From an uncultured Candidatus Saccharibacteria bacterium (GTDB taxonomy: Bacteria; Patescibacteriota; Minisyncoccia; Phycocordibacterales; Zambryskibacteraceae): a stretch of 64,000 nt of DNA. The DNA is taken from positions 482 through 64,481 of the forward strand of contig CAZUDK010000002.1 in the NCBI GenBank assembly GCA_964618905.1. Reading direction: 5' to 3'. Each line of letters starts with the position of its first letter. Positions within the stretch are counted from its first letter, which is position 1. Of this stretch, positions 25,925 through 57,261 are shown one piece after another. The notes beneath the pieces were generated by a model, which was given only the letters and a program-made list of their open reading frames with translations, ran no database searches and was not told the DNA's origin. The translations under genes were made by a program, and so were the position numbers.

Positions 25925-26509
25925 ATGAAAATAATTGGAATAGATTTGGATGATACTCTTCTTAACTTGAATGGAACATTCATCAAATTCCTTAACTTAA
26001 ATTATGATACGGCTTATGCAAGAGAGAATTTAACTTCTCCATTTTTTGAGGAATCTTTTGATATTACTAAAGAAGATGTATTGAAAAGGCTGCATGAATT
26101 CTATAACTCCGAACACCATGCAGAAGCAGAGCCTATCGAAGGCGCTCCAGAAGCTCTGGCAAGATTAGCTGAGGCAAATGAACTTCACATTGTTACAGCT
26201 TCGCCGGAAGAGATGAAAGATAGGATTGAGGCATGGTTAGGGAAGAATTTTACAAACAGGTTTAAGGGAATTCACTTCACCAGGAAAAGCATTTTTGATA
26301 ACTCAGTGAGAAATAAGAAGGACATTTGTGCAGAACTGGGGATTGAAGTGTTTATAGATGATGCTTTGCATAATGCTGAGGATATATCTTCAGCTGGTAT
26401 ACCTGTTTTTCTTCTGGATTCACCTTGGAACCAGAAATCAATAAATTCTCCTCTTGTAACTAGGGTTCATTCTTGGGATGATATAATTAATAAACTAGCA
26501 ATAAACTAG
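25925..26509 (+). CDS. HAD-superfamily 5'(3')-deoxyribonucleotidase-like hydrolase
   Basis: N-terminal IGIDLDDTL (DxD motif), FIDDALHNAE. Confidence 0.6.
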   Translation: MKIIGIDLDDTLLNLNGTFIKFLNLNYDTAYARENLTSPFFEESFDITKEDVLKRLHEFYNSEHHAEAEPIEGAPEALARLAEANELHIVTASPEEMKDRIEAWLGKNFTNRFKGIHFTRKSIFDNSVRNKKDICAELGIEVFIDDALHNAEDISSAGIPVFLLDSPWNQKSINSPLVTRVHSWDDIINKLAIN

Positions 26510-26986: not shown

Positions 26987-27547
26987 ATGGCTCGAGTTAG
27001 GTATCTTCATCATATTTTGCGCGATACTCTTATCGTTCTTGCTAGCATAGTTCTTGCATACCTTCTTTTAAAAGAAGGCGCTATAGAAAGTTTCTTAGCT
27101 TCTACAGGAGACTCGCTTATAATCTCAAGCTTCCTGGCGGGAGCATTTTTTACTTCAATCTTCACCATAGCGCCTGCGGGGGTGGCGCTTGTAGCCATCG
27201 GCCAGTCTTATCATCCGCTAGCTGTCGCTCTCTTTGGTGCATTGGGAGCTATGTGTGTTGATCTCGGTTTGCTTCTGCTCGTTAGAAAAGATTTAACGAG
27301 TGCTGAGATGATAGCTGGCAAGGTATTTCGTTTCCGCAGGCTTATTATCAAAGGTTTTCACTTTGGTTTGCTTAAATGGTTTGCATTTATTGCAGGCATA
27401 TTTCTTATAGCTTCTCCTGCCCCTGACGAGGTAGGGCTGTTTCTCTTAGGTGCTTCCAAGATTAATTCTAAATTGCTGCCTGCTGTTTTCTTTACAGCTA
27501 ACTTTTTAGGTATTTGGGCGATTCTGTCTATTGCAGCCGCTCTGTAA
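26987..27547 (+). CDS. Hypothetical integral membrane protein (about 5 TM)
   Basis: 186 aa hydrophobic. Confidence 0.45.
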   Translation: MARVRYLHHILRDTLIVLASIVLAYLLLKEGAIESFLASTGDSLIISSFLAGAFFTSIFTIAPAGVALVAIGQSYHPLAVALFGALGAMCVDLGLLLLVRKDLTSAEMIAGKVFRFRRLIIKGFHFGLLKWFAFIAGIFLIASPAPDEVGLFLLGASKINSKLLPAVFFTANFLGIWAILSIAAAL

Positions 27548-28142
27548 AATTGCAGGGTGGTATACTGCTTCTATGGAAGAACTTTTAAGGTTTATTGAAC
27601 TCACTCAGAAATTTAAAGCAGTAAGGCGCCAGGTAATTCTTGCCAGAGAAGACAGAAATGAAAATGATGCTGAACACAGTTTCCAGCTTGCGATTGTAGG
27701 TTGGTATATCATTTTCTCGAAAGGATTAGATCTTGATATGAGCAAAGTTTTTAAATATTCTTTGGCTCATGATTTGGTGGAAGTTTATGCTGGCGATGTT
27801 CCGTTCAATCATGCCGATCATTCGCATAAGCACACAAAGGAAGAAGAAGCTCTAAAGCAAATAGAGAGCGAGTTTCCTGAATTCAAAGATTTTCAGGAAG
27901 CAGTATCTGCGTATGAAAAGAGGGAAGACAAGGAAAGCAGATTTGTATATGCCTTGGATAAAATTTTACCAGTTCTTAATATTTATTTGGACAAAGGACA
28001 TTCGTGGAAAGTCCATGATATTTCTATGGAAGAAATAATTAAACATAAGAAAGATAAAGTTTCTCTTTCACCAGAGATTGCAAAGTATTTTGAAATTCTT
28101 TTGAATATTTTGGATAAAGAACAGAAGCTTCTTTTTAATTAA
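27531..28142 (+). CDS. HD-domain phosphohydrolase (YfbR-like 5'-deoxynucleotidase family)
   Basis: H...HD metal motif (AEHSF...LAHDLVEVYAGD); TTG start in track, probable ATG start at about 27573. Confidence 0.65.
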   Translation: MQPLCKIAGWYTASMEELLRFIELTQKFKAVRRQVILAREDRNENDAEHSFQLAIVGWYIIFSKGLDLDMSKVFKYSLAHDLVEVYAGDVPFNHADHSHKHTKEEEALKQIESEFPEFKDFQEAVSAYEKREDKESRFVYALDKILPVLNIYLDKGHSWKVHDISMEEIIKHKKDKVSLSPEIAKYFEILLNILDKEQKLLFN

Positions 28143-30355: not shown

Positions 30356-30922
30356 TTGAAAAAGATTAAATCACGTACTCAGTGCTCAGGAGGAGTCATG
30401 AATAGCTTGCCAGAACGAGGATGGGTTGTCGCTTTCGACATTTCGGAGAAATTCGGAATGTTTGATACCGGACTATTGAGCATCCCTTTCCATTTGGATT
30501 TCCATGGAAGAGTGATGGTCTCTTACGGCAGTATGGATATAGTCCAAGGGTCAGTGCCAAGATTGCCTCTCATAGGAAAAGAAGTAATCTTCTGTGTGAA
30601 GGAAGGCATGGCAAACCCTTGGGTCTACGAGGAGGAGTGGCGAATAGCAGCGGCGATGTACCAGAAGACGATGAAATTGTATATTGATGCATTGTCGTCT
30701 TCGGTTTCTTTTTCTCCTCTCAACCCGCAGAGCCTCGAATCTCATCAATGGTGGCGCCGGGTGCTCGATATACCAGATGAGGAAGTCCTCACGGAGAAAG
30801 CGCTCAAGAAGTATTACAGGAGGGCTGCCAAGAAGGTTCATCCGGACAAAGATGGCGCCCATGCCGCGATGGTTGCAGTCAATCAGGCTTATGCGGCAGC
30901 CAAGGAGTTCATTCGTAATTAA
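30356..30922 (+). CDS. J-domain protein (C-terminal DnaJ domain with HPD) and a novel N-terminal domain
   Basis: KKYYRRAAKKVHPDKDGAHAAMVAVNQAY; likely start at MNSLPERG; GC up to 57%. Confidence 0.65.
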   Translation: MKKIKSRTQCSGGVMNSLPERGWVVAFDISEKFGMFDTGLLSIPFHLDFHGRVMVSYGSMDIVQGSVPRLPLIGKEVIFCVKEGMANPWVYEEEWRIAAAMYQKTMKLYIDALSSSVSFSPLNPQSLESHQWWRRVLDIPDEEVLTEKALKKYYRRAAKKVHPDKDGAHAAMVAVNQAYAAAKEFIRN

Positions 30923-31040: not shown

Positions 31041-31223
31041 ATGTCGAAAATCTCTAACTACATCAAAGATTCCAGAGGAGAGCTGAAGCACGTGGCTTGG
31101 CCTACTCGCAAGCAGTCGATAGTTCTTACTATCCTGGTTATTGCCGTGTCCATACTCTCTTCTCTTTATTTAGGATTTTTCGATTATCTCTTCTCCCTTA
31201 TACTCCAGAAATTTGTCCTCTAA
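31041..31223 (+). CDS. secE: Preprotein translocase subunit SecE
   Basis: 60 aa, single TM, immediately upstream of nusG. Confidence 0.8.
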   Translation: MSKISNYIKDSRGELKHVAWPTRKQSIVLTILVIAVSILSSLYLGFFDYLFSLILQKFVL

Positions 31224-31238: not shown

Positions 31239-31784
31239 ATGGCTAAGCAAAAAATAGAAGAAGGAAGAAACTGGTACGTCATCCACACTTATGCAGGATA
31301 TGAAAATGCGGTGATGAGGAATCTCAAGCAGCGCATCGAGTCTCTTGGTATGGAAGACAAGATATTTAATGTCATAGTGCCTACGGAAAAGAAGATAAAG
31401 ATAAAGGGAGGCAAGAGGGTAGAGGAGGAAGAAAAGATTTACCCGGGCTACATCTTGGTAGATATGATAGTAACTGACGACTCGTGGTATGTGGTGCGAA
31501 ACACTCCTCGCGTAACCGGCTTCGTCGGCTCTGGTGTGTATCCGGTGCCTATAGACAAGAAGGAGGTAGATGCGCTCTTTGTTCGCATGAATGCAGACAA
31601 GCCGGCACACACTATCAATCTCCAGCAAGACGATGCGGTGCTTATTGTGGACGGGCCGTTTAAGGACCTTGAAGGCAAAGTTTCCGAGATAGACAACGAG
31701 CGCGGCAAGGTCAAAGTTCTGGTCAATATGTTCGGTCGCGAGACCCCAGTGGAGCTCGACCCGTTGCAGGTCAAGAAGATTTAA
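31239..31784 (+). CDS. nusG: Transcription termination/antitermination factor NusG
   Basis: NGN and KOW domains; WYVIHTYAGYENAV... Confidence 0.9.
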   Translation: MAKQKIEEGRNWYVIHTYAGYENAVMRNLKQRIESLGMEDKIFNVIVPTEKKIKIKGGKRVEEEEKIYPGYILVDMIVTDDSWYVVRNTPRVTGFVGSGVYPVPIDKKEVDALFVRMNADKPAHTINLQQDDAVLIVDGPFKDLEGKVSEIDNERGKVKVLVNMFGRETPVELDPLQVKKI

Positions 31785-31806: not shown

Positions 31807-32229
31807 ATGGCAAAAAAAGTAGTAAAAATTCTAAAGCTTCAGATTCCGGGAGGACAGGCAGTACCCGGCCAACAGCTTGGTCCGGTGCTCGGAGGTGCCG
31901 GCATTCAGATAGGTGAATTCGTAAAGAGATTTAACGACGAGACCAGGGATCGCATGGGCGAAACTGTGCCTGTGGTTGTAGAGGTTTATGATGACAGAAG
32001 CTATGGCATGACCTACAAGGTTGAGCCAGCTTCCGCGCTGATCCTCAAGGCAGTCGGCAAGCCAAAAGGTTCCGGCAAGAATGTAACTTCCAAAGTAGGC
32101 TCTATCTCCAAGTCTCAGCTCAAGGAAATTGCCGAGAAGAAGATGCCCGATCTCAATGCTAATGATGTAGAGGGTGCCATGCAGATTATCGCTGGCACTG
32201 CCCGAAGCATGGGTGTCGAGGTAAAATAA
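31807..32229 (+). CDS. rplK: 50S ribosomal protein L11
   Basis: KLQIPGGQA...PPVGPALG-like core. Confidence 0.9.
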   Translation: MAKKVVKILKLQIPGGQAVPGQQLGPVLGGAGIQIGEFVKRFNDETRDRMGETVPVVVEVYDDRSYGMTYKVEPASALILKAVGKPKGSGKNVTSKVGSISKSQLKEIAEKKMPDLNANDVEGAMQIIAGTARSMGVEVK

Positions 32230-32249: not shown

Positions 32250-32285
32250 ACAAAGCCCCGCTGTCGCGGGGCTTTGCTTTTAAAT
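32250..32285 (+). terminator. Rho-independent terminator (caaagccccgc-tgtc-gcggggctttg + CTTTT)
   Basis: Directly after rplK; no rplA follows. Confidence 0.8.
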
Positions 32286-32393: not shown

Positions 32394-33020
32394 ATGGAAG
32401 CCGAACTGGTGAGAAGGATCATTCAGGAGGCATCTCAGTCCACCTTCCTGACACCTCGAGAGAGGTATACGGATGATGTGAGACAGGCTGTGGACTTCGC
32501 CGAGAGGGCAAGGCAGGTTGGGTGTCGAGTAGTTTTGACTCAAGGTACGTTCGACCTCACACATATAGGCCACGCAAGGTATGTAAGGGAAGCCAAAAAT
32601 CAAGGTCATGTCTTGATAGTTGGAGTGGACGATGATGCAAAAGCACGCAAGCGCAAGGGTGAAAATCGCCCTGTTGTTCCTCTAGAGGAACGCGCTGAGA
32701 TGCTTACGCACTTGAGGTATGTCGATCTTGTTGTGCTGAAACGCGCTGAGGACGAAAAGTGGTATCTTATCAAGAGCATTCATCCGGATGTTCTAATAGC
32801 TGTTGAGGGAACGTACGACGAGGAGGAAGTCATTGCTCTCTCCAAATTATGTGGAGATATTGTTGTCCTTCCTCGGCAAGCCGAAACGAGTACAAGCGCG
32901 AAAGTTCGCAAGCTGGTGCTCGATGGAGCTGAGAATCTTACGCAGGAACTCGTCTCCAAGATACCGATTTTCGTGCATGAGATTTACGAGGGTCTCAAGA
33001 AGAATGGAACGGCATCATGA
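32394..33020 (+). CDS. Cytidylyltransferase-like nucleotidyltransferase (TagD/RfaE-II family, HxGH motif)
   Basis: GTFDLTHIGHARYVREAK...VGVDDD...LRYVD; first gene of the GC-rich island. Confidence 0.65.
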   Translation: MEAELVRRIIQEASQSTFLTPRERYTDDVRQAVDFAERARQVGCRVVLTQGTFDLTHIGHARYVREAKNQGHVLIVGVDDDAKARKRKGENRPVVPLEERAEMLTHLRYVDLVVLKRAEDEKWYLIKSIHPDVLIAVEGTYDEEEVIALSKLCGDIVVLPRQAETSTSAKVRKLVLDGAENLTQELVSKIPIFVHEIYEGLKKNGTAS

Positions 33021-33862
33021 AAGCGCTTATATGCTATATGCCGGTCCTGCATCAAGGATATCTTGACTTCATTGATAGACATCCTGATGCTGACGCCCTG
33101 CTTATCTTCGGACAAGACATCATTAATCGATTTGATTGGCTGAAGAGAAAGGAAATTAGAGCAGTCGATCCTCGCATAATGTCTTTATCTGTCTGCGCCG
33201 CAGTCCGCCCCGGGCTGAATGTGTATGTGATGGATGAGGCATATGCGCGTCTTCTTAAGGAGTCTGAGTCGAAGCTTGTCTTCGCAGATGAGGAAGAATC
33301 CCGTGAAGTTGCCCGGCAGATGTTTGCCGGATGCGATGTAAGCTTTGATAAAGTTTTTCTTCGATGGGATAGGACCAAAATTGCCGAAAGCGAAGTTGTT
33401 AACGGTTTTCCTATCGCTTCGGAAAGGGTCCACCAACTGTTCATGCAAGAAGCCTCGGAAGTCAGCCAGCAGAGTTCTGATTGGTGGCGGCAAGTGGGGG
33501 CAGTGCTTGTTTCCGGAGATAAGAAGATTGTCGCCTGCAACAGGCATATTCCTTCTGACCATACTCCTTATGTTGTGGGCGATCCTCGGAATCTGCTCAA
33601 GAGGGGGGTGGGGATAGAGATAACAAGCGTCCTCCATTCCGAAGCTGCAGTAATTGCTCAAGCAGCAAGAGAGGGTGTCTCCACGGTTGGAGCGCGCCTT
33701 TATGTGACCACCTTCCCTTGTCCTTACTGTGCCAATGTTCTCGCACACACAGGAATATCTGAGCTGTACTTCAGCTCTGGTTATTCTGTTCTGGACGGGG
33801 CTGGCCTGTTGGAACGTGCAGGCATCAAGATCTTTCAGGTCGTAGACCAACAGACCTCCTGA
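33017..33862 (+). CDS. dCMP/CMP deaminase-family protein with ~130-aa N-terminal extension
   Basis: HSEAAVI (HAE zinc motif) ...TFPCPYCAN (PCxxC); N-terminal domain unassigned. Confidence 0.7.
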   Translation: MKALICYMPVLHQGYLDFIDRHPDADALLIFGQDIINRFDWLKRKEIRAVDPRIMSLSVCAAVRPGLNVYVMDEAYARLLKESESKLVFADEEESREVARQMFAGCDVSFDKVFLRWDRTKIAESEVVNGFPIASERVHQLFMQEASEVSQQSSDWWRQVGAVLVSGDKKIVACNRHIPSDHTPYVVGDPRNLLKRGVGIEITSVLHSEAAVIAQAAREGVSTVGARLYVTTFPCPYCANVLAHTGISELYFSSGYSVLDGAGLLERAGIKIFQVVDQQTS

Positions 33863-33869
33863 AAATAAT

Positions 33870-34331
33870 TCAGGGGGTCTGTTTCTTTTTTTGAAATCCA
33901 ATACTTGTCTTTAGTTTTTCCCTTCCTTTACCTTCTTTTTCGCCAACTACAACATGAGCATGAAGGTGAGTGATGGTCGCCCCCGTATATTCTGGCTTGC
34001 CGAATCTCATAAGTAATATGCCGCCTTTCATTTTGAATTCTTTCTCAGCCCATTTGGTTAGATGTATCAATTCTTGTGCCGCTTTAGGACTAAGTTCGCT
34101 GACATTTTCTATGTGCTTTTTATGGACAAGCAATAAGTGCAATTTAGATCCTTCATACGGGTAGTCATTTTTAGTTATAAGCCATTTGTCTGTTTCTTTA
34201 ATAATAGGAGCGTCGTGATATTTTTTGAAGTATTTTGGACAGAATGGACATACGCCTTCCTTTTGTATTTCTACCATTTGTTTTCTTTGTGCTGGAACGC
34301 GAGCGTTGGATATATTCATCAATTTCTTCAT
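33870..34331 (-). CDS. HIT-family nucleotide hydrolase/transferase
   Basis: CPFCP and the histidine triad HLHAHVV; trimmed to the Met at MKKLMNIS. Confidence 0.7.
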   Translation of the reverse strand: MKKLMNISNARVPAQRKQMVEIQKEGVCPFCPKYFKKYHDAPIIKETDKWLITKNDYPYEGSKLHLLLVHKKHIENVSELSPKAAQELIHLTKWAEKEFKMKGGILLMRFGKPEYTGATITHLHAHVVVGEKEGKGREKLKTSIGFQKKKQTP

Positions 34332-34357
34332 GTACGAGATATTATCAGGTTCTCGAA

Positions 34358-34388
34358 ATAAAAAAAGCCGGCACGAAAGTGCCGGCTC
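34358..34388 (-). terminator. Rho-independent terminator after folA (gccggcac-gaaa-gtgccggc + T7 on the minus strand)
   Basis: A-run on the plus strand precedes the hairpin. Confidence 0.7.
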
Positions 34389-34400
34389 CCAACACAAAGC

Positions 34401-34895
34401 TCATCGAATTCGCCTGTGTATCTCCCGTGTGAAGTCGAACTCGTTGCGTTTATCTGCTTGATGATTCATTGACCAGACAAGCCTCCACGTATCTTTATTC
34501 CATTCAGGAAAGAAAGTGTCTCCTTCGACTTCCGCATGAACGCGAGTCAGATAAAGCTCCTCAGCATGTGGTAGGGCAAGTGCGTAAACTTGTGCTCCGC
34601 CAATAATGAAAATATCTTCACGCTGAGACATTTTCAAAATCGGCTCCCACTCATGTACATAGGTTACGTTAGGCCGCTCATACGGAATGCACCTAGTCAA
34701 GACGATATTGTCCCTTTCGGGAAGAGGTTGGCCTAATTCGTACACTATACTGCGGAAGGTGTTGCTTCCCATCACTACTGGATGACCTTTAGTAATCCTC
34801 TTAAACCAGTGCAGGTCATCGCGGAGTCGCCATGGGGTGGTATTGTTCCTCCCGATAACTCCATTCTCTGCGACAGCAGCGATAATCTTGAGCAT
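34401..34895 (-). CDS. folA: Dihydrofolate reductase
   Basis: 164 aa; IAAVAENGVIG...PW...GHPVVMGSNTF...IIGGAQVY. Confidence 0.85.
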   Translation of the reverse strand: MLKIIAAVAENGVIGRNNTTPWRLRDDLHWFKRITKGHPVVMGSNTFRSIVYELGQPLPERDNIVLTRCIPYERPNVTYVHEWEPILKMSQREDIFIIGGAQVYALALPHAEELYLTRVHAEVEGDTFFPEWNKDTWRLVWSMNHQADKRNEFDFTREIHRRIR

Positions 34896-34906
34896 AAGTC
34901 CTCCTG

Positions 34907-35806
34907 CTAGATGGCCACTGGGATACCCTTGATTCCCGGATGAGGCTTATAATCGGAAAGCTCGAAGTCATCCGGACGCATCTCGAAGATGTTTGTACTG
35001 TAGGTATTCAGCGTGAGTGTAGGAAGCTTGCGCGGCTCCCGCTTGAGCATCTCTTCCACGTACGGAATCTGGTCCACATAAATGTGGGCATCAGAGAAGC
35101 TGTGGATATACTTGTAGGGAATTGTTCCCGTGGCCCGAGCAAGTCCTAATAGAGCACCACCACCATACTGAATCATGTTCGCCGGTACTCCTACCGGAAA
35201 GTCAGCTGAACGCTGGAACATATGTAGCACGAGACGCATGCCAGGTAGGACACGGGCATGCATCCAGCCATGGCACGGAGCTACCACTGTCTTTTGCTGT
35301 TTGCCTCGTCCTCGCCCGATGTACTGGGGAATCCAGGGGGTCACGAAGTGGGTGCGAAGCTGGGGTTCATCGGTGATCTGCTCCACCAGATGTTGTATCT
35401 GGTTGAAAGGAGGACCTTCTCTGGTAGGGAAATTGTGGAAGGCTTCTCCATAAGCACCTAAGCCTCCGGTTCCCGTAGGAACACCGCGCTTCTGGCACTT
35501 TTTCTCAGTCCACCAATCTTTCCACCAGTTGCAGCCGAACTCCTCGAGTCCATCGAGAGAATTGACCCCATTAAAGAAAGCAAAAATCTCGCCCACTGCG
35601 GCTTTCCAAAACGGGATATTCCTCTCCGTGATGAGAGGAATGCCGTTCTCAAGAAGGAAGTGCATAGGCGGCGGAGCCATGTACGTTAGAGCAGGAACAC
35701 CTTGTTGGCTCTCTACTTCTTCTCCTTCTTCGAGAATGAGTCGGAGACAATCGCGATACTGCGTATCCGGCGTTCTCTCCTCGTACGGCTTGTAAGTGGG
35801 ATGCAT
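34907..35806 (-). CDS. Divergent thymidylate synthase-family enzyme (ThyA, or a ThyA-like pyrimidine hydroxymethylase)
   Basis: VAPCH nucleophile, QRSADFPVGVPANMIQY, C-terminal DYKPHPGIKGIPVAI match ThyA; regions equivalent to Arg21 and Arg126/127 diverge. Confidence 0.7.
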   Translation of the reverse strand: MHPTYKPYEERTPDTQYRDCLRLILEEGEEVESQQGVPALTYMAPPPMHFLLENGIPLITERNIPFWKAAVGEIFAFFNGVNSLDGLEEFGCNWWKDWWTEKKCQKRGVPTGTGGLGAYGEAFHNFPTREGPPFNQIQHLVEQITDEPQLRTHFVTPWIPQYIGRGRGKQQKTVVAPCHGWMHARVLPGMRLVLHMFQRSADFPVGVPANMIQYGGGALLGLARATGTIPYKYIHSFSDAHIYVDQIPYVEEMLKREPRKLPTLTLNTYSTNIFEMRPDDFELSDYKPHPGIKGIPVAI

Positions 35807-35917
35807 CTGTCATCCTTTCGTTGTCTGTTAGTTGTAAAGATCGTTGCCTGGCGCAATACTACGTATTTTGAGGCTTTTCTGCAATCAGGTATCATTAAGA
35901 TTAAGGAATATACAGTT

Positions 35918-36340
35918 ATGATTCTAAAGGTTAAAAAACTACATCCAGAAGCTAAGCTGCCAATTTTCGCCCATCCCGGAGATGCCGGCATGGACCTCTT
36001 CGCATTTGAGGATGTGGAGGTCCCAAGCGGCCGGTCAGCAAAGATCAGAGTCGGAATATCTCTTGAAATACCAGAAGGATATGTTGGCTTATGCTGGGAT
36101 AAGAGCGGACTATCAATGAACCACGGCATAAAAGTTCTTGGTGGGGTGATTGACTCTGGCTTTAGGGGCGAACTCGTTGTGGCAGTATTCAATCTTGGGC
36201 CAGAAAACTATACTTTTCATAAAGGCGACAAGGTTATGCAAATACTGATTCAAAAGGTGGAAAATCCGGAAATTGTTGAAGCAGAGGAACTTTCTGATTC
36301 AGCACGCGGAGAAAATGGCTTTGGCAGCACAGGAAAATGA
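35918..36340 (+). CDS. dut: dUTP diphosphatase
   Basis: Trimmed to the Met at MILKVKK (RBS aaggaata); GDAGMDL, GVIDSGFRGEL motifs. Confidence 0.85.
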   Translation: MILKVKKLHPEAKLPIFAHPGDAGMDLFAFEDVEVPSGRSAKIRVGISLEIPEGYVGLCWDKSGLSMNHGIKVLGGVIDSGFRGELVVAVFNLGPENYTFHKGDKVMQILIQKVENPEIVEAEELSDSARGENGFGSTGK

Positions 36341-37911
36341 TTAAGCAGCAAATCGAAAATTCAGTTAAGAACGCACTCTCCGAACTTGGACTAGGGGATA
36401 TGAATTTTGTGGTGGAACATCCGGCTCGCATAGAGTTTGGAGACTACTCTACGAATGCGGGTATTATTACAGGCAAGGGTGAGGAGATTGCAGAATATTT
36501 GAAATCGAATCTTCCAAAGGAAGTTGAAAGAGTGGAACTAAAGGGCGGCTTCATCAATTTCTTTCTGTCTAAAGAATTTTTCAAAAAGAGCATTGGAGAA
36601 ATTATTAAAAATGGAGAAAGTTTTGGGAAGAATGACAATCTAGAAGGCCAGAAAACAATCATTGAGTACACAGACCCGAATCCATTCAAGGAATTCCATA
36701 TCGGGCATTTGATGTCTAATGCTGTCGGCGAAGCTGTTTCAAGAATCATTGAGTGGAATGGAGCAGAGGTTAAGAGAGCCTGCTACCAGGGTGATGTGGG
36801 TATGCATGTAGCCAAAGCTGTGTGGGGAATGATGAAAGGGGAGAAAGATCCGTATGCCGCAGGCAACAGGGCATATGAAGATGATGAAGATGCGAAGAAA
36901 GAAATACAGCGAATAAACAAAGAAATATATGAAGGCGGAGGAGATGTAAAAGACCTTTGGGAGAGAGGGCGTCAGGAAAGTTTAGATGCTTTTGAAAAAA
37001 TATATAAAAAACTTGGAACAAAGTTTGATTACTTTTTCTTTGAATCAGAGACAGGAAAGGTTGGCCAGAAAATCGTCGAGGAGAATATTGGCAAGGTGTT
37101 TGAAGAATCTGACGGAGCAGTTGTTTTCAAGGCGGAGAAATATGACCCAAAACTTCATACCCGCGTTTTCATAAATTCAGAAGGCTTGCCGACATACGAA
37201 GCTAAAGAGCTTGGACTTGCACAGGTTAAGCACGAAAAATATCCGTACGATAAATCCATTGTAGTAACTGGCAATGAAGTAGATGGTTACTTTAAGGTTT
37301 TGCTTGAAGCGATGAAGCAAGTTCTGCCGAAGCTTGCAGAGAAGACAGAACATATCTCTCACGGCATGCTGCGTTTGCCGACAGGTAAGATGTCCTCGCG
37401 CACTGGAGATGTCATTACTGCTGAAGAACTCTTAGAGCAGGTTAAGGAGAAGACAGAAGGCAATGAGGAGGTTGCTATAGGAGCTATCAAGTATATGATC
37501 CTGCGTCAGGAAATTGGCGGAAATATAATTTTCGATATGGAAAAGTCTGTTTCGACAGAAGGAGACTCCGGAGTATATTTGCAATATGCATATGCAAGGT
37601 CTTGTTCGATTCTGGAGAAGGCAAACGGGCAGGCAGACCCAGAAGGTGTGAGAGAGAATGTGCAGAAGGTGGAAAAACTTTTATACAGATTTCCGGAAGT
37701 GGTCGAGAGGGCTATGCACGGCTTCTCGCCGAATTTAGTTACAACATATCTGACAGAGCTTGCAGGTGCTTTTAATAATTTTTATGCGCATGAGCAGGTC
37801 ATCGGCGATTCGCCGGAGGCGCTTTACCGCTTGGCGGTGGTGGAGGCTTTCAATAAGGTGATGAAGAACGGATTAGAGGTCCTGGGTATTCCAGCTCCTG
37901 AGAGAATATAA
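36337..37911 (+). CDS. argS: Arginine--tRNA ligase
   Basis: 524 aa; HIGH (FHIGHLMSNA), YLQYAYARSCSIL signature, DALR anticodon-binding domain. Confidence 0.9.
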   Translation: MIKQQIENSVKNALSELGLGDMNFVVEHPARIEFGDYSTNAGIITGKGEEIAEYLKSNLPKEVERVELKGGFINFFLSKEFFKKSIGEIIKNGESFGKNDNLEGQKTIIEYTDPNPFKEFHIGHLMSNAVGEAVSRIIEWNGAEVKRACYQGDVGMHVAKAVWGMMKGEKDPYAAGNRAYEDDEDAKKEIQRINKEIYEGGGDVKDLWERGRQESLDAFEKIYKKLGTKFDYFFFESETGKVGQKIVEENIGKVFEESDGAVVFKAEKYDPKLHTRVFINSEGLPTYEAKELGLAQVKHEKYPYDKSIVVTGNEVDGYFKVLLEAMKQVLPKLAEKTEHISHGMLRLPTGKMSSRTGDVITAEELLEQVKEKTEGNEEVAIGAIKYMILRQEIGGNIIFDMEKSVSTEGDSGVYLQYAYARSCSILEKANGQADPEGVRENVQKVEKLLYRFPEVVERAMHGFSPNLVTTYLTELAGAFNNFYAHEQVIGDSPEALYRLAVVEAFNKVMKNGLEVLGIPAPERI

Positions 37912-37989
37912 AGCTCAGCATTTACAATTAACTTTTATTATTGTAAAGTTCTGACAGAAATTGAACCCTTTCCCAACCTTGGAGGCATT

Positions 37990-38607
37990 ATGATCCTTAC
38001 CTTTAGTGGTCCATCCTGCGCAGGCAAGAGCACTATAATCAAGGCAGTATGCTGGCAGGACAAAAGCTTCCGAGTGCCGGTCTCATTCACCACTCGCCTC
38101 CTGATGGAAGGAGAGATAGAGGGGGATGACTACAATCATCGAACACGCGAGAGATTCGCTGATTTGGTAGGCGAGCGACATTTTGCAGAATGGGCAGAGC
38201 ATTTAGGGTATTTCTACGGTACCCCCAAGGATGCTATTGAAGAGATAATCAGTGCAGGGTATAACATTCTCATGGATCTCAACTGCAGTGGCGCCCGGCA
38301 AATCAAAATATTGTATCCGGATGCCGTGAGCTGCTTTATTCGTCCGCCGGACCTCGAAACGCTCGAGAGGCGCATAAGGAAAAGGCGGCGGGGAGAGAGT
38401 GAGGAAGACATCTGGAGAAGGCTGGCGATCGCCCGTAGCGAGATAGATCAGAGAGGGTGGTTCGATTACTGCATTACCAACGAAAAGTTGGAGGATGCGG
38501 TTGATGAAGTTCTTGCGGTCATCCAGAAGGTGCGGATTCGAGATGAACACGATGACATGGATGACTCTAGCAGAACGTCCCTGCCACGGATTCCTGGGTT
38601 CGTTTGA
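37990..38607 (+). CDS. Guanylate kinase-like nucleoside-monophosphate kinase
   Basis: P-loop GPSCAGKST, TTR...GE..G.DY; GC-rich (48-58%); acidic C-terminal tail. Confidence 0.65.
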   Translation: MILTFSGPSCAGKSTIIKAVCWQDKSFRVPVSFTTRLLMEGEIEGDDYNHRTRERFADLVGERHFAEWAEHLGYFYGTPKDAIEEIISAGYNILMDLNCSGARQIKILYPDAVSCFIRPPDLETLERRIRKRRRGESEEDIWRRLAIARSEIDQRGWFDYCITNEKLEDAVDEVLAVIQKVRIRDEHDDMDDSSRTSLPRIPGFV

Positions 38608-38609
38608 AT

Positions 38610-38650
38610 TAGCAGCCGGAGCGCATACGCGCTCCGGCTTTATGTTTCAG
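38610..38650 (+). terminator. Rho-independent terminator (agccggagcgc-atac-gcgctccggct + TTTATGTTT)
   Basis: Perfect 11-bp GC stem. Confidence 0.8.
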
Positions 38651-38700
38651 GTATACTCATAAGGTTTTGTAAAGAGGGTCTTAGTGCTAGGATATTCACC

Positions 38701-41700
38701 ATGAATGAAAAGTCTGACAGAGCCAAGAGGGAAGAGAAGATACTCTCTTTCTGGCAGGAAAAAAATATTTTCAAAAAAACTCTGGAGAAGGATGCTCCTA
38801 AGGGGGAATTTGTATTTTACGAAGGTCCGCCGACCGCAAACGGCCGGCCGGGCATTCACCACCTTGAAGCCCGTGCTTTCAAGGATGCTATCCCGCGATA
38901 CAAGACCATGCGCGGATATCATGTGCGCCGAAAGGCTGGCTGGGACACACATGGCTTGCCGGTAGAGCTTGAGGTTGAGAAACAGCTTGGCATAAGCTCA
39001 AAAAAACAAATTGAAGAGTATGGCATAGCCAAGTTCAATGAGGAGTGCAAGAAAAATGTCTGGAAGTATGTGGACGAATGGATAGACTTTACTAAGAGGA
39101 TAGGTTACTGGGTGGACTTTGACGATGCATACATTACTTACAAAAATCCGTACATAGAATCTGTCTGGAATGTGATCGCTCGTGCGGATGAAAGAGGTCT
39201 TCTATACAAGGATTATAAGGTGGTTCCGTGGTGTCCAAGGTGCGGTACTGCTCTTTCTTCACACGAGCTGGCGCAAGGATATGCAGATGTTAAAGATTTG
39301 TCTGTGTATGCAAAATTTAAAATTGTCGGATTCGATAACGCCTATTTCCTAGCATGGACTACTACACCATGGACTCTGCCGGGCAATGTCGCTCTGGCAG
39401 TCGGTGCAGACATCACATACGTTGAAGCTAAGGTTGGGGAAGATATCTTTGTCTTAGCTAAAGACAGGCTTTCAGTACTCGAAGAGTCATATGAGATAAT
39501 CGCTGAGCACAAGGGTTCGGAGATGGTCGGCATGGAGTACGAGCCTCTGTATCCTTTCCTTAAAGAAAATTATAAAGGCGAAGGCTTGGAGAAAGCATAT
39601 AAAGTTTACACAGCAGATTTTGTGAACACAGAAGATGGTACAGGCATTGTTCATACGGCTGTGATGTACGGCCAAGATGACTTTGCTCTTGGTACGAAAA
39701 TTGGCTTGCCAAAGTACCATTTAGTAGATGAATCCGGGCATTTTCTGCCAGAAGCAGGCTTCCTTGCAGGCAAGTTTGTAAAAGATGAAGAAACTGCCGT
39801 CGAGATCATTAAAGACTTGGCTCATAGAGGACTCTTCTTTAAGAAAGAGAAATATGAGCACTCGTATCCTCACTGTTGGAGGTGTAAGACGCCTCTTATC
39901 TACTATGCCCGAGATTCCTGGTATATCAGGATGTCTGAGCTCCGCGACAAGCTGGTAAGCGAAAACGAGAAAATAAATTGGGAGCCGAATTATATAAAAG
40001 AAGGCCGCTTCGGCGAGTGGCTTCGAGAGGTTAAAGATTGGGCGCTATCCCGTGAGCGCTACTGGGGCACGCCTTTGCCAGTATGGGAGTCCGAGACCAG
40101 TAAGAAAATCGTTGCCGGTTCCATAGAGACTCTTAAAAAGTATACAAAGAGATCTGACAACAAGTATTTTATGATGCGGCACGCTGAGGCCATGAGCAAC
40201 GCCAAGAATGTGCTCGATCCTCAAGGCGATCCGAACAATCATCTTACAGATAAGGGCAGAGCAGAGGCAGTCAGGACTTCAGAAGAACTGAAAGGCAAAG
40301 AAATAGAATTGATACTGACTTCTCCATTTATTCGCACTAAAGAGACAGCAGAGATAGTAAGGAAGGAACTAGGTTTGCCGAAAGAGAGTGTTGTGGTGGA
40401 TGATCGCTTGCACGAAGCCAATGAAAAAGACTTTAAGCTGGTGCGCAAGCGCCTGGGCGAATTCATTTACTGGCTAGACAAAAAATATTTGGGCAGAAAT
40501 ATTCTTATAGTGTCGCACGGAAATCCTCTCTGGGTTTTGGAGAGAATTTCAGACTGGAAAGACAGCGACAATTTCGAGGGGGATAAGATGCTTGCCACTG
40601 CTGAAGTTCGAGAGCTGAATTTTGCTCCCATGCCGCACAATGAAGATTATGAGCTTGATCTTCATAAGCCTTACATAGATGAAGTAGTGCTTGAGAAAGA
40701 CGGCGAAGAGTACAGGCGAACCAAGGAAGTCATGGATGTCTGGCTCGACTCAGGTTCAATGCCTTTCGCTCAGGACCATTATCCTTTCTCAGGCAAACTA
40801 ATGTATCCAGCAGACTTCATATCTGAAGCTATCGACCAGACACGCGGCTGGTTTTACACTCTGCATGCCGTTGGAATGATTATGGAGAGAGGTCATGCAT
40901 ACAACAATGTTATTTGCCTCGGCCACATACTTGATGCAGAAGGCAAGAAGATGTCTAAGTCTATCGGCAATGTGGTAAATCCGTGGGAGGCCATGGACAA
41001 ATACGGAGTGGATGTACTTCGCATGTGGATGTATTCGGTTAATCAGCCCGGAGAATCCAAGAACTTTGATGAACGCACTGTCGATGAGCTGAGCAAGCGA
41101 GTCTTTAATCTCTTAGACAACGTGTATGCGTTTTATGAAATGTACAAATTGCCGAATGATTCAAGCGAAGGAGATGGAGAAAAAGTTCATATTCTTGACA
41201 GGTGGATATTGGCTCGACTCAGCGAGTTGGTAGATTTCTCTTCTGAGATGCTGGATCAATATAAATTGCTTGAGCCAACGCGCGCCATGCGAGAGTTTAT
41301 TGATGATCTTTCTACGTGGTACTTGCGCCGCTCGAGAGATAGATTAAAAGAAGGGGATGCTGGCGCTAAGGAGACATTGCATCAAGTCCTTATTACTCTG
41401 TCTAAAATTTTAGCTCCTTTCGCTCCGTTTACGGCGGAAGAGTTGTATCGGAATCTTCGTGAGGAGGATGAACCAGAGAGTGTTCATCTTTGTGCCTGGC
41501 CTGAAGTGAAGCGTTCGCTCTTTTCTATGTTCAGAAAGGATGATTCTTCTAAAATTATTGAAGATATGAAGGAGGTGAGGAGGATTACAACCCTTGCCCT
41601 CAGTGAAAGGCAGAATGCGGGTATAAAAGTGCGTCAGCCGCTCGCTAAACTCGAAATTAAAAATTGGAAGCTTGGCAAAGAATATGAGGAAATCATCAAG

Positions 41701-41955
41701 GATGAGGTAAACGTCAAAGAAGTTTTAGAGAATCCTCAACTTGATACAGAGGTAAGACTCGATACCAGTATCACCCCCGAGCTTGAAGAAGAAGGAAAAA
41801 TGCGCGAAGTAATAAGGCGTATTCAGGATCTGCGCAAAGAAAAGAATCTGAATCCGGGCGAGACAATGGAGTATGATCTGCCGGAAGAAGAGAGAGAACT
41901 TTTTGCAAAATACAGAGAAGAAATAAAGAAAGCTACAAATATAGAATTAAAGTGA
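38701..41955 (+). CDS. ileS: Isoleucine--tRNA ligase with an inserted histidine-phosphatase (PGAM-like) domain
   Basis: 1084 aa; editing-domain TTTPWTLPGN, WCPRCGT, KMSKS, DVWLDSGS; inserted block YFMMRHAE...LTDKGRAEA...ILTSPFIRTKETAEIV...IVSHGN at about aa 490-620. Confidence 0.85.
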   Translation: MNEKSDRAKREEKILSFWQEKNIFKKTLEKDAPKGEFVFYEGPPTANGRPGIHHLEARAFKDAIPRYKTMRGYHVRRKAGWDTHGLPVELEVEKQLGISSKKQIEEYGIAKFNEECKKNVWKYVDEWIDFTKRIGYWVDFDDAYITYKNPYIESVWNVIARADERGLLYKDYKVVPWCPRCGTALSSHELAQGYADVKDLSVYAKFKIVGFDNAYFLAWTTTPWTLPGNVALAVGADITYVEAKVGEDIFVLAKDRLSVLEESYEIIAEHKGSEMVGMEYEPLYPFLKENYKGEGLEKAYKVYTADFVNTEDGTGIVHTAVMYGQDDFALGTKIGLPKYHLVDESGHFLPEAGFLAGKFVKDEETAVEIIKDLAHRGLFFKKEKYEHSYPHCWRCKTPLIYYARDSWYIRMSELRDKLVSENEKINWEPNYIKEGRFGEWLREVKDWALSRERYWGTPLPVWESETSKKIVAGSIETLKKYTKRSDNKYFMMRHAEAMSNAKNVLDPQGDPNNHLTDKGRAEAVRTSEELKGKEIELILTSPFIRTKETAEIVRKELGLPKESVVVDDRLHEANEKDFKLVRKRLGEFIYWLDKKYLGRNILIVSHGNPLWVLERISDWKDSDNFEGDKMLATAEVRELNFAPMPHNEDYELDLHKPYIDEVVLEKDGEEYRRTKEVMDVWLDSGSMPFAQDHYPFSGKLMYPADFISEAIDQTRGWFYTLHAVGMIMERGHAYNNVICLGHILDAEGKKMSKSIGNVVNPWEAMDKYGVDVLRMWMYSVNQPGESKNFDERTVDELSKRVFNLLDNVYAFYEMYKLPNDSSEGDGEKVHILDRWILARLSELVDFSSEMLDQYKLLEPTRAMREFIDDLSTWYLRRSRDRLKEGDAGAKETLHQVLITLSKILAPFAPFTAEELYRNLREEDEPESVHLCAWPEVKRSLFSMFRKDDSSKIIEDMKEVRRITTLALSERQNAGIKVRQPLAKLEIKNWKLGKEYEEIIKDEVNVKEVLENPQLDTEVRLDTSITPELEEEGKMREVIRRIQDLRKEKNLNPGETMEYDLPEEERELFAKYREEIKKATNIELK
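40160..40565 (+). other. In-frame histidine-phosphatase (phosphoglycerate-mutase/SixA-like) domain inside ileS
   Basis: RHAE (RHG), LTDKG..QA-type, SHG motifs in order; continuous reading frame. Confidence 0.7.
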
Positions 41956-55950: not shown

Positions 55951-56069
55951 AAAGGGTTGCAAATCTTGTCCATTAAGATGATAATGGACTTACTTGCAAT
56001 AAGAGACAAAATGTGCTCAAATAAAGGACAAGTAAAGAGACAATAAAGGACTCTTAAAAGACAATAAAA

Positions 56070-56867
56070 ATGTCCAATATAAGCCACAGATCCCAAAGAC
56101 TCGCTTCTGCCGTGTATTTGCTGACGAACTTTTTTGGTGACCAAGAGCCTTTAAAGTGGAAGCTTCGTTCTCTCGCTTCAGAACTTGTCTCTTATTCAAA
56201 TTCTATTAAAGACAATTATTCCGCAATCACCGATTGCAAGCTGAAAGCAGCTTCTGTCACTGAAGAGATAAAAAGTTTTCTAAATGTCTCTAAGACGGCA
56301 GGTCTTGTATCTGAAACAAATCATTCACTGATAATTCCTGAGCTGAATAAATACATTGAATTAGTTGCTGTACCTGAGGGTATTTCGGATGTTCTCAATA
56401 TTGGAGAGGAAACTCATCCAGAAGAAAAGTCTAATCTTAACCTGACTGAAAAAGAAAGCTTAAAAATAAAGGACAGAATTTCTCAATCTGCAGATCATGT
56501 AGAGGAAAAAAGGCAGTATCTGCCTGAAGTTTCTGAACACACTCAGAGTGAAAGGGTATCTTTAGAAGGTAATTACAAACCTGGATCAAGTCGCTTTATA
56601 AGCAAAAACAACGAAAAGGCTAGCTTGGATTCAAACAAAAACGCTCAACTCAAAGACTTCGGCGCAGTGTCCGTTAAAAGAAATAGCCGTCAGAGCGCTA
56701 TAGTAAGCCTTCTTAAGCGCAAGAAAGAAATAATGATAAAGGACGTCTCCCCTCTTATAAGTAATTGCAGCGAGAAGACTATCCAGCGCGAACTTCTGGC
56801 TATGGTTAAGGCCGGCATTCTTGTTAAACATGGAGAAAAGCGCTGGAGTAGGTACTCTTTGGCTTAA
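56070..56867 (+). CDS. Hypothetical protein with C-terminal winged-helix DNA-binding domain (putative regulator)
   Basis: C-terminus SRQSAIVSLLKRKKEIMIKDVSPLISNCSEKTIQRELLAMVKAGILVKHGEKRWSRYSL is wHTH-like. Confidence 0.45.
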   Translation: MSNISHRSQRLASAVYLLTNFFGDQEPLKWKLRSLASELVSYSNSIKDNYSAITDCKLKAASVTEEIKSFLNVSKTAGLVSETNHSLIIPELNKYIELVAVPEGISDVLNIGEETHPEEKSNLNLTEKESLKIKDRISQSADHVEEKRQYLPEVSEHTQSERVSLEGNYKPGSSRFISKNNEKASLDSNKNAQLKDFGAVSVKRNSRQSAIVSLLKRKKEIMIKDVSPLISNCSEKTIQRELLAMVKAGILVKHGEKRWSRYSLA

Positions 56868-57261
56868 GCGTGCCTATAGAGTATCAACATAGATTCTTCT
56901 TGCTTAAATGGCTTAAATAGATTACTATTGATGAGCAGATAGCCCTGCTAGGCTGCCTCATTTGAGGGTAAGTCATTGCATAATGACCACAGGCTCTAAC
57001 ATGGTTATCCACAAGTAATTTAACGTTTATTTCATACTCATCCTATAATGGATGAGTGCGAATTGATTATTATTGGGCTTACTTGCACACCTATTAAACT
57101 GACGCGCATTAGCGCAGGCCTTAGGCCAACGGTTTGATAGGTGTGCAGGCTTGCCGGCAAAGGCTTATCCGTTGTCGGCAATTAATACCCGCTTTGCAAC
57201 CTCTACGAATTATTAGAAATCATTGAGGAAGCAACAGCGCATTAAAAAAATAGAATTACAA
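56868..57261 (+). promoter_or_regulatory. Long structured 5' leader / candidate cis-regulatory RNA upstream of the surface-protein gene
   Basis: Hairpin actcatcc-TATAAT-ggatgagt; 11-bp long-range helix tgcacacctat/ataggtgtgca enclosing gcgc/gcgc and ggcc/ggcc hairpins; gccggc palindrome. Confidence 0.4.

Follow-up and report, generated by a model that had tools for sequence, protein, structure and literature searches.

A probable thymidylate-synthesis gene cluster of Patescibacteria downstream of secE-nusG-rplK, and its accessory nucleotidyltransferase, deaminase domain and HIT hydrolase

Introduction

How did a compact set of nucleotide-metabolism genes come to stand directly behind a ribosomal-protein gene in a member of the Patescibacteria, and what do these genes make? 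The question is raised by six contiguous genes (the block, positions 32394-36340) in a 64,000-nucleotide stretch of contig CAZUDK010000002.1 from assembly GCA_964618905.1, hereafter called the window. They encode a nucleotidyltransferase of the CTP_transf_like family (CTP_transf), a deoxycytidine monophosphate (dCMP) deaminase fused to an additional N-terminal domain, a histidine triad (HIT) hydrolase, dihydrofolate reductase (DHFR), a member of the ThyA family of thymidylate synthases (TS) and a dUTPase. A sequence-only reading of the window had listed these six genes as a module for the synthesis of deoxythymidine monophosphate (dTMP), and had proposed that the module was phage-like, rich in guanine and cytosine (GC) and acquired horizontally. 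The gene list is borne out, all six being found with their family models above the curated cutoffs, and so is the label of dTMP-synthesis module, since dCMP deaminase, dUTPase, ThyA and DHFR are present together with the unusual nucleotidyltransferase and HIT partners. The proposed origin is not. We present evidence that the block is probably a lineage-typical dTMP-synthesis cluster of Patescibacteria, inherited vertically, with its ancestral site downstream of secE-nusG-rplK.

Results

Conservation of the locus in Patescibacteria

The window is ordinary chromosomal DNA of a Patescibacterium of the Parcubacteria/Paceibacteria type. In the nearest relative detected, represented by L089 and by a JGI contig of 31 kb, the gene order is identical to that of the window and reads SIMPL-secE-nusG-rplK-(two hypothetical genes)-CTP_transf-deaminase-HIT-DHFR-ThyA-dUTPase-argS-gmk-ileS. 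The same locus is found on a 544-kb contig of a much more distant member of the Parcubacteria (L001), with DHFR relocated and a gene for serine hydroxymethyltransferase (SHMT) added. The proteins of the block diverge together with those that flank it: compared with L089, identity amounts to 87% for nusG, 79% for rplK, 74% for CTP_transf, 72% for ThyA, 66% for dUTPase, 60% for the deaminase, 59% for DHFR, 55% for argS and 52% for HIT. The comparison with L001 gives a similar pattern, the block proteins falling within the range of nusG, rplK, argS and ileS. The dut stop codon overlaps the argS start codon (36337) by 4 nt, and this junction recurs in both L089 and L001, dut abutting argS in the relatives. 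The GC content of the block also tracks that of the host, from 44% in L003 and 46% in L089 to 54% in L001 and about 70% in actinomycetes. At the block borders, next to rplK and argS, no gene for an integrase, a tRNA or a transposase was found (border repeats were not searched).

An exact-sequence look-up of the window ThyA in the contig index returned no match, and genomic context was therefore read from homologues. Those of ThyA (more than 100 listed, at 59-76% identity) carry a source name in a minority of cases, and all of these names are Parcubacteria, Paceibacterota, Kaiserbacteria, Patescibacteria or unclassified metagenome. The homologues of the deaminase and of the nucleotidyltransferase are distributed in the same way. 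A scan with one genome per species detected the fused deaminase in 459 genomes, and nearly all of the 80 that were listed are titled as Patescibacteria or resemble them. We fetched 84 fused-deaminase loci and counted the partners present within 6 kb. CTP_transf, directly upstream and on the same strand, was found in 82 of the 84 and HIT, usually directly downstream of ThyA or DHFR, in 81; ThyA follows with 78, DHFR with 71, dUTPase/DCD with 42 and SHMT with 24.

The module lies immediately downstream of nusG-rplK(-rplA) in 41 of 85 loci, 27 of them without and 14 with rplA. At seven of these 41 loci rplJ follows the module, and rplL was detected in five. These seven (L046 at 4681-11365, L060, L063, L070, L073, L074 and L084) are titled or placed as Saccharibacteria/Saccharimonadia-type; here rplA stands before the module and rplJ after it, so that it lies within the rplKAJL cluster, which is normally uninterrupted, an embedding that appears to be undescribed.

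Conserved synteny, co-divergence with the flanking genes and a GC content that follows the host all argue for vertical inheritance. Conserved orthologous synteny had been named beforehand, in the sequence-only reading itself, as the observation that speaks against its own proposal of horizontal acquisition. The two comparisons suggested there gave the same answer: the closest homologues are of Patescibacteria type, not from phages or other phyla, and the block occupies the same locus in the sister genomes L089 and L001.

Base composition and the ribosomal-protein operon

Composition was compared within the 64-kb window and with the loci of the relatives. The window has 43.3% GC, the block 47.7% and the remainder of the window 43.0%. 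Within the block the values are 49.4% for CTP_transf, 49.6% for the deaminase, 37.7% for HIT, 47.3% for DHFR, 52.6% for ThyA and 45.4% for dUTPase, so that only thyA exceeds 50%. The flanking genes have 49.6% (rplK), 47.8% (nusG), 51.3% (gmk) and 43.0% (argS). The GC-richest 300-bp segment reaches 56%, and the GC-richest 3.9-kb stretch of the window begins at 31601, thus including the end of nusG and rplK. The earlier statement that the block is clearly GC-richer than its flanks, with values up to 58%, consequently holds with respect to argS; it fails for rplK and overstates the maximum. With plain tetranucleotide-frequency distances the outlier of the window is the 56-60 kb region, not the block. 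Sliding GC and tetranucleotide analyses, the check that had been suggested, thus revealed within the window a mild deviation only, common to neighbouring conserved genes. The idea of a GC island was therefore rejected: per-gene GC, GC at third codon positions (GC3) and tetranucleotides all deviate mildly, as they do in these neighbours. The modest GC excess is due to strongly conserved genes in an AT-leaning genome (compare nusG, rplK and gmk), not to a foreign origin.

Strong terminator-like hairpins, with free energies of -20 to -24 kcal/mol and z values calculated against shuffled sequences (Table 1), are present after rplK and after folA, as the sequence-only reading had stated. A further one, at the convergent deaminase/HIT junction, overlaps both stop codons. 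It was also correct that rplA does not follow rplK; indeed rplA, rplJ and rplL were not found anywhere within the 64-kb window. A truncation of the operon by insertion of the block is not supported. The OD1-L1 Parcubacteria are without ribosomal protein L1 (rpL1) altogether (PMC5220378, PMC7304191), and the absence of rplA is a trait of this lineage, not an insertion scar. As the module follows nusG-rplK in many relatives, the 'cut' ribosomal operon is an old Patescibacteria feature.

Probable enzymes of dTMP synthesis

The window ThyA is 31% identical to E. coli ThyA, and its subclade 31-38%. It scores above the cutoff of TIGR03284 (142.6 bits; cutoff 108.35) and below those of the narrower NF0024xx equivalogs. 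We scored its residues in a 21-sequence alignment that includes E. coli ThyA, whose numbering is used here. The catalytic set C146 (in a PCH motif), H147, E58, Y94, H207 and Y209 is invariant, R126, Q165 and D205 are kept as well, and R166 and S167 are nearly invariant. The folate-binding residues W80, W83 and D169 are invariant, as is the TS-type C-terminus PVA(I/V) (P261, V262 and A263). N177 is also invariant, in the context 'VPANM' or 'VPSNM', and an Asn at this position indicates deoxyuridine monophosphate (dUMP) rather than dCMP as the substrate. The marks of a dUMP/dCMP hydroxymethylase of the phage T4 gp42 or SPO1 gp29 type, namely Asp at 177 (in the dCMP enzymes), accompanying deoxynucleoside monophosphate (dNMP) kinase or base-modifying transferases, and independence from DHFR, were not found: position 177 is Asn, no such partner genes were identified in the module, and ThyA is coupled to DHFR and SHMT. 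On sequence grounds, a dUMP-hydroxymethylating activity nevertheless remains conceivable. Of the two insertions in the ThyA sequence, one follows W83 and is of a type also present in eukaryote-like TS.

In the deaminase domain H207, E209, C235 and C238 are invariant. Its best Foldseek matches are the phage T4 enzyme Cd (1vq2), the cyanophage S-TIM5 enzyme (4p9c) and human DCTD, with E values of 1e-10 to 1e-8. As regards DHFR, folA genes from genomes of the Candidate Phyla Radiation (CPR) were verified by heterologous expression in a folA-deficient E. coli strain (PMC11974145). The adjacency and co-occurrence of thyA and folA are given as well known in work cited in that article.

The ThyA residues that are kept, and the association of ThyA with DHFR and, in relatives, also with SHMT, make canonical synthesis of dTMP from dUMP the most likely function of the block, as far as sequence can tell. 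The zinc-dependent deaminase domain would convert dCMP into dUMP, and dUTPase would supply dUMP from dUTP with release of pyrophosphate. ThyA would then convert dUMP and 5,10-methylenetetrahydrofolate into dTMP and dihydrofolate, from which DHFR would regenerate tetrahydrofolate; the SHMT encoded next door in many relatives would close the cycle. This four-enzyme scheme is drawn from the conserved catalytic residues and from what is known of the families.

The accessory trio

Three components are not accounted for by this scheme: the nucleotidyltransferase, the N-terminal domain of the deaminase and the Hint-like HIT protein. The nucleotidyltransferase has intact motifs, HxGH ('THIGH') and a C-terminal 'ETSTSAKVRK', which align with those of HldC (5x9q). 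Its best NCBIfam match is rfaE_dom_II (109.8 bits; cutoff 181.5), it scores 59.5 against the TagD equivalog (cutoff 165.4), and it remains below every equivalog cutoff. In the PDB it matches ECT (3elb) and HldC (5x9q). The HIT protein likewise carries the expected motifs, an N-terminal CPFC and the histidine triad HLHAHVV, aligned to the bacterial and archaeal structures 5uvm and 2eo4.

The deaminase does not have the single-domain architecture of about 130-190 aa, the fusion protein being 281 aa long, and it scores 51 bits against the ComEB equivalog (cutoff 219). Its N-terminal domain matches no Pfam family. It contains the conserved motifs YxPVxHxGY, K(D/E)IRAL, PDEDxSR and FLRWDR, and K45, R48, L115 and R116 are invariant in a 40-sequence alignment. 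In the AlphaFold2 model (predicted local distance difference test score 91.7) it adopts a five-stranded Rossmann-like fold. The top Foldseek matches of this model in the PDB are HldC, TagD and PPAT (probability 0.99-1.0, E values 6e-3 to 8e-3, template modelling scores 0.55-0.58), and those in BFVD are TagD and ECT. In its predicted fold the domain therefore resembles a degenerate cytidylyltransferase, with HxGY where HxGH is expected (H12, G14 and Y15 at 90% or more). Among 1.84 billion representatives searched, its occurrence was almost confined to fusions with the deaminase, about 275-300 aa in length. Other architectures were considered and set aside, as the short or odd matches inspected look like fragments or frameshifted calls (the 1007-aa P0372 was not inspected).

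HIT is usually co-transcribed with thyA, and the nucleotidyltransferase gene is translationally coupled to that of the deaminase. Full-text searches of the literature found no description of this gene association, and an article on thymidylate evolution (PMC9931769) does not mention CPR, and PMC10633639 offers nothing on the subject either. The trio, near-constant in the module, thus appears to be undescribed. Since it is more constant than DHFR or dUTPase and travels with ThyA, it is probably tied mechanistically to the pathway. In the manner of the two tandem CT domains of ECT, the nucleotidyltransferase would heterodimerize with the pseudo-paralogous domain of the deaminase, and the complex would sense or deliver a cytidine or deoxycytidine nucleotide. 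It might regulate the deaminase through ligands of the (d)CTP/dTTP type. Alternatively, the complex and HIT might convert a (d)CTP-derived nucleotidyl conjugate into dCMP, HIT releasing the nucleoside monophosphate.

Occurrence outside Patescibacteria

The cassette was also found in three actinomycete records, those of Thermomonospora echinospora (L005, 1-6870), Actinocorallia libanotica (L058, 5410-8813) and a metagenome-assembled genome (MAG) of Actinomycetes (L061). The first two species belong to the Thermomonosporaceae. These cassettes have the order and orientation of the window, with CTP_transf and deaminase forward and HIT, DHFR and ThyA reverse, and their proteins are 36-56% identical to those of the window. 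In T. echinospora and A. libanotica the region around the cassette is variable, and its neighbours are a phage-type integrase or an AbiEii toxin gene, together with the same Fer4/CCG gene. L005 has, in place of the dUTPase, a DCD-like protein of 324 aa whose C-terminal tail is hydrophobic, and its cassette contains an inserted HTH_31 regulator.

The actinomycete copies of ThyA, deaminase and nucleotidyltransferase group as a single clade inside Patescibacteria when trees are built by neighbour-joining, with the Saccharimonadia MAG L046 as sister. The concatenated tree gives bootstrap values of 100 for the actinomycete-L046 pairing and 74 for its placement in the Saccharibacteria-type rplA/rplJ group; neighbour-joining was the only tree method used, L046 itself has 56% GC, and the titles of MAGs are not reliable. 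As the Saccharibacteria in culture live as epibionts of Actinobacteria (PMC10633639), the simplest interpretation is that the epibiont exported the cassette to its host. These sequence relationships suggest that the cassette was apparently exported from Saccharimonadia to actinomycetes of the Thermomonosporaceae, a transfer that seems not to have been described.

In IMG/VR just one full-length fused deaminase was found, on a 158-kb predicted viral contig (UViG_3300037483_001116; L090, 6562-8813) with 61.7% GC over the stretch fetched. Here the CTP_transf-deaminase pair occurs alone, with no ThyA, HIT or DHFR within 8 kb, and the CTP_transf is 70% identical to that of Thermomonospora. The pair directly follows a Tad3-like gene (an inhibitor of type I Thoeris), near a sugar C-methyltransferase gene.

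Weighing of the interpretation and its alternatives

Several observations weigh against reading the block as a vertically inherited cluster for canonical dTMP synthesis. As regards its origin, thyA is the GC-richest open reading frame (ORF) of the window (z 2.8), and in tetranucleotide z-scores the block correlates with the window as a whole at a lowish 0.36-0.46 (window mean 0.573, standard deviation 0.093), values as low being found at 16-17 kb and 58-59 kb. MAG titles are often unreliable (for example 'uncultured Pseudomonadales'), and the taxonomic spread is for this reason based partly on gene context. An ancient transfer into the ancestor of Patescibacteria is also conceivable. As regards function, ThyA does not have all four phosphate-binding arginines (R21, R126', R127' and R166): Q replaces R21 in the window protein and the aligned Patescibacteria copies, the actinobacterial ones keeping R, and at least 90% of the aligned sequences, that of the window among them, have T in place of R127. 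It further carries a clade-specific basic 7-aa insertion ('IPQYIxRGxGKQQK') shortly before the catalytic Cys, and the combination of R21Q, R127T and this insertion makes a non-canonical substrate or product possible. The fold matches of the N-terminal domain, which over two independent libraries comprise HldC, TagD, PPAT, ECT and NMNAT, are weak (E values 3e-3 to 1e-2). Its profile alignment with the neighbouring nucleotidyltransferase family by hhalign is not significant (E 0.13, probability below 1%); nonetheless the motifs are colinear, HQGY with HIGH and KRKEIRAVDP with RKGENRPVVP. The roles proposed for the nucleotidyltransferase, the N-terminal domain and HIT are, moreover, pure inference.

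A bolder proposal combines these elements: the invariant four-gene core, consisting of the nucleotidyltransferase, the deaminase fusion, HIT and the ThyA subclade with R21Q, R127T and the basic insertion, would encode an unrecognised way of making or controlling thymidylate, in which a nucleotidyltransferase-deaminase complex handles the pyrimidine as a nucleotidyl conjugate or delivers it from (d)CTP, and HIT releases it, the self-contained cassette having been exported from Saccharimonadia epibionts to their actinomycete hosts. We regard this as a long shot.

Rated no higher is an explicit carrier-linked route, in which the nucleotidyltransferase places (d)CMP on a phosphorylated acceptor (forming a nucleoside diphosphate conjugate, NDP-X, or a dinucleoside diphosphate), the deaminase and ThyA act on the conjugate, and HIT frees dTMP or dTDP. 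The co-occurrence of the four genes in 78-82 of 84 loci, more constant than that of DHFR or dUTPase, would be explained, as would their apparent joint movement into actinomycetes and the catalytically intact appearance of the nucleotidyltransferase and HIT. A ThyA lacking two phosphate-binding arginines and equipped with a conserved basic loop fits the same idea, and the invariant polar residues H12, K45, R48, E92 and R116 of the N-terminal domain suggest ligand binding. However, R21 and R127' are the two phosphate-binding arginines of TS that tolerate substitution, R21 is kept in the actinobacterial ThyA copies, and the first ThyA insertion is of a kind also seen in eukaryote-type TS. A regulatory role, or one in the supply of dCMP from dCTP, explains the co-occurrence more economically. 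We consider the conjugate route unlikely.

A modified-pyrimidine pathway, which the sequence-only reading had also raised, seems to us less likely again. ThyA would then be a dUMP hydroxymethylase or another C5-modifying enzyme, and the nucleotidyltransferase and HIT would process the modified nucleotide for incorporation into DNA. The low identity to E. coli ThyA, the two arginine replacements and the insertion near the catalytic Cys agree with this, as does the near-constancy of the otherwise unexplained nucleotidyltransferase and HIT, and dUMP hydroxymethylases are not cleanly separable from thymidylate synthases by sequence. The residues tested for reductive methylation and folate binding (E58, W80, W83, Y94, C146, H147, D169, N177, H207 and Y209) are nevertheless invariant, the C-terminus PVAI is of TS type, and TIGR03284 is matched above its cutoff. 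Coupling to DHFR (71/84) and SHMT (24/84) makes sense only if dihydrofolate is a product. No dNMP kinase, glycosyltransferase or 5-hydroxymethyldeoxyuridine (5-hmdU) kinase was identified in the module, there is no second ThyA-family gene among the annotated genes of the window (eight ORFs of at least 150 aa were not scanned), and hundreds of species have the module in a housekeeping position.

It is more doubtful still that the accessory genes are hitch-hikers, that is, a nucleotidyltransferase for a cofactor or envelope precursor and a general Hint protein standing unrelated beside an N-terminally extended deaminase in a compact genome. Mixed-function operons are indeed numerous in the compact genomes of Patescibacteria, dut being coupled to argS here; a terminator parts folA from HIT in the window; and the best families of the nucleotidyltransferase are ADP-heptose, CDP-glycerol and CDP-ethanolamine enzymes. 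Chance neighbourhood is hard to reconcile with co-location in 82 (nucleotidyltransferase) and 81 (HIT) of 84 loci from very divergent genomes in which other genes were rearranged, or with the overlap of the CTP_transf stop and deaminase start. The modelled N-terminal domain falls in the nucleotidyltransferase fold class, all these genes were apparently co-transferred to Thermomonosporaceae, and the CTP_transf-deaminase pair recurs on the viral contig.

Finally, the recent insertion after rplK of a phage-derived cassette of the T4 td/frd/cd kind, truncating the ribosomal-protein operon, can for practical purposes be dismissed: what recommends it (the resemblance of the gene set to phage auxiliary nucleotide genes in PHROG matches, the modestly raised GC and lowish tetranucleotide correlation, the strong terminators that bracket units, the phage-type integrase beside the Thermomonospora cassette and the pair on one IMG/VR contig) is outweighed by identical synteny in the nearest relative and a locus shared with a distant one, by the nusG-rplK(-rplA) adjacency across Patescibacteria, by co-divergence with the flanks and GC tracking of the host in relatives, by the dut-argS overlap, by an rplK as GC-rich as the block, by the lineage-specific loss of rplA, by borders free of integrase, tRNA and transposase, and by a tblastn search of 50,697 phage records in which no ThyA exceeded 34% identity and nothing matched the N-terminal domain of the deaminase. 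The supposed phage-derived island is thus not real, and a record of this outcome prevents a false call of horizontal gene transfer. The reading of the block as a vertically inherited dTMP-synthesis cluster is retained.

Layout of the locus and neighbouring genes

The coordinates of the features are collected in Table 1. The nucleotidyltransferase gene is preceded by the ribosome-binding site GAGGAGG, and its stop codon overlaps the start of the deaminase gene (ATGA). The gene order of the window begins with dnaA-dnaN (1.3-4 kb), PBP1, ruvB, a pilB-like ATPase gene, polA and tRNA genes, and continues with secE-nusG-rplK, the block, argS-gmk-ileS, recO, metS, recA and ftsK.

Table 1. Positions and assignments of the genes, domains and hairpins at the locus (window coordinates).
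Feature	Position	Strand	Assignment and remarks
secE	31041-31223	+	Upstream flank; conserved anchor of the module in Patescibacteria
nusG	31239-31784	+	Upstream flank; conserved anchor of the module in Patescibacteria
rplK	31807-32229	+	Upstream flank; conserved anchor of the module in Patescibacteria; Pfam L11; 47% identity to E. coli rplK (tblastn)
Terminator-like hairpin after rplK	32251-32276	+	11-bp stem with 8 GC pairs, then CTTTT; -22 kcal/mol, z -4.57
HldC/TagD-like nucleotidyltransferase (CTP_transf_like)	32394-33020	+	PF01467, 64.5 bits (cutoff 21)
dCMP deaminase fusion protein, 281 aa	33017-33862	+	PF00383 domain at aa 138-253
N-terminal domain of the fusion, ~125 aa	33017-33391	+	No Pfam match; predicted Rossmann-like
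dCMP deaminase domain	33428-33862	+	Zinc motifs HxE and PCxxC; PF00383, 59.1 bits (cutoff 25)
Hairpin at the convergent deaminase/HIT junction	33849-33883	+	15-bp stem, then T-run; -24.3 kcal/mol, z -4.61
Hint-like HIT hydrolase, 153 aa	33870-34331	-	Pfam HIT (PF01230, 35.6 bits; cutoff 21.5) and DcpS_C
Terminator-like hairpin, folA stop to HIT start	34363-34390	-	T-run; -20.3 kcal/mol, z -4.27
DHFR (folA)	34401-34895	-	PF00186, 180 bits; NF008037, 143.7 bits
ThyA-family thymidylate synthase	34907-35806	-	Patescibacteria-wide subclade; PF00303, 187.1 bits (cutoff 24.3)
dUTPase (dut)	35918-36340	+	TIGR00576, 139.5 bits (cutoff 102.55)
argS, gmk, ileS	36337-41955	+	Downstream flank; order kept in the closest relative, L089

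The cumulative GC skew rises almost monotonically over the 64 kb. Together with the position of dnaA/dnaN (1340-3995) at the left end, this suggests that the window starts near the replication origin and belongs to a single replichore. Two further genes of nucleotide metabolism lie 4-6 kb upstream of the block, encoding an NT5C-type 5'(3')-deoxyribonucleotidase and an HD-domain YfbR-like 5'-deoxynucleotidase (25925-26509 and 27531-28142, both on the + strand); a YfbR-like HD gene also adjoins the module in L006. Between SIMPL and secE, a gene with a TTG start and 48% GC (30356-30922, +) encodes a 188-aa protein whose only match is a C-terminal DnaJ (J-domain); it is absent from this position in the contig of the closest relative, and L001 has a 77-aa ORF there.

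Downstream of the block, gmk (37990-38639) is the second GC-richest ORF of the window (51.3%), with a strong hairpin after it at 38614-38639. Its product shares only 38% identity with that of the gene at the same place in L089, compared with 55-87% for its neighbours. The isoleucyl-tRNA synthetase (38701-41955, +, 1084 aa) contains a histidine-phosphatase domain (His_Phos_1, 'RHAE') inserted in the middle of the catalytic region (aa 490-574; Pfam, 71 bits), and the same insertion was recorded in L001 (901-4368). The strongest tetranucleotide-frequency deviation of the window is found at 56000-62433 (L1 distance 0.29-0.40, mean 0.18). This region encodes a 649-aa PG_binding_1 protein (57223-59172, 48.7% GC) and a 1007-aa adhesin resembling beta-helix proteins and pectate lyases (59410-62433), both of which are probably repetitive surface proteins.

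Discussion

Patescibacteria are thought to depend on salvaged nucleotides, and yet a full dTMP-synthesis module is retained in hundreds of species, in association with the most conserved cluster of genes for ribosomal proteins and transcription (nusG-rplK-rplA, module, rplJ-rplL). The enzyme families of the dTMP cycle are known; what appears to be new is the accessory trio, together with the location inside the ribosomal cluster and the apparent transfer from epibiont to host. An understanding of what the trio does would close a gap in the known core metabolism of a large, mostly uncultured branch of Bacteria. The passage from Saccharimonadia to Thermomonosporaceae, if true, would be a case of gene flow from an epibiont to its host.

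Four known systems invite comparison. The genes of T4-type phages (td, frd, cd and gp56/dut) specify the same four enzyme activities as the block, and the best structural matches of the block deaminase domain include the T4 and cyanophage S-TIM5 dCMP deaminases. There is, however, no close sequence relationship, as the phage ThyA and N-terminal domain searches described above illustrate. The block is chromosomal, syntenic and clade-wide, and its ThyA lacks the hydroxymethylase-type Asp at the N177 position.

The second comparison is with the anti-phage dCTP deaminase (NCBIfam NF041025, 'dCTPase' in PADLOC), which likewise has an N-terminal domain in front of a domain of the dCMP-deaminase class. 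The N-terminal domain of this defence enzyme is kinase-like, whereas that of the block deaminase is predicted to be a cytidylyltransferase-like Rossmann domain. The block protein scores 64.5 against the NF041025 model (cutoff 400), a weak match confined to the deaminase part, and it is encoded among housekeeping genes of dTMP synthesis, not in a defence island. A defence system was accordingly considered and rejected: PADLOC returned weak generic matches only (the deaminase part to 'dCTPase' and HIT to ThsC, 5e-6), at a housekeeping locus.

For the accessory genes the nearest models are ECT (3elb) and TagD/HldC. The block nucleotidyltransferase shares their HxGH and RxxxTSTS-type motifs, and the modelled N-terminal domain of the deaminase is of the same fold class. 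ECT pairs two tandem CT domains, one active and one degenerate, which would provide a precedent for an active/pseudo pair. In the block, by contrast, the putative pseudo-partner belongs to another polypeptide, where it is joined to a dCMP deaminase and has HxGY in place of HxGH; its profile homology to the neighbouring nucleotidyltransferase family is not significant, and the nucleotidyltransferase stays below the HldC and TagD equivalog cutoffs.

The closest parallel is the bacterial operon of the thyA-folA cycle (ThyA, EC 2.1.1.45, DHFR and SHMT, with a ComEB/Cd deaminase and dUTPase). Its enzyme families match those of the block, in which the catalytic residues tested are kept and next to which SHMT is encoded in relatives. 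The block differs in gathering all steps in one cluster that adjoins or lies inside rplKAJL. Its ThyA forms a distinct subclade (31-38% identity to the E. coli enzyme, R21Q, R127T and the 7-aa basic insertion), its deaminase carries an extra N-terminal domain, and a nucleotidyltransferase and a HIT protein are near-constant members of the cluster.

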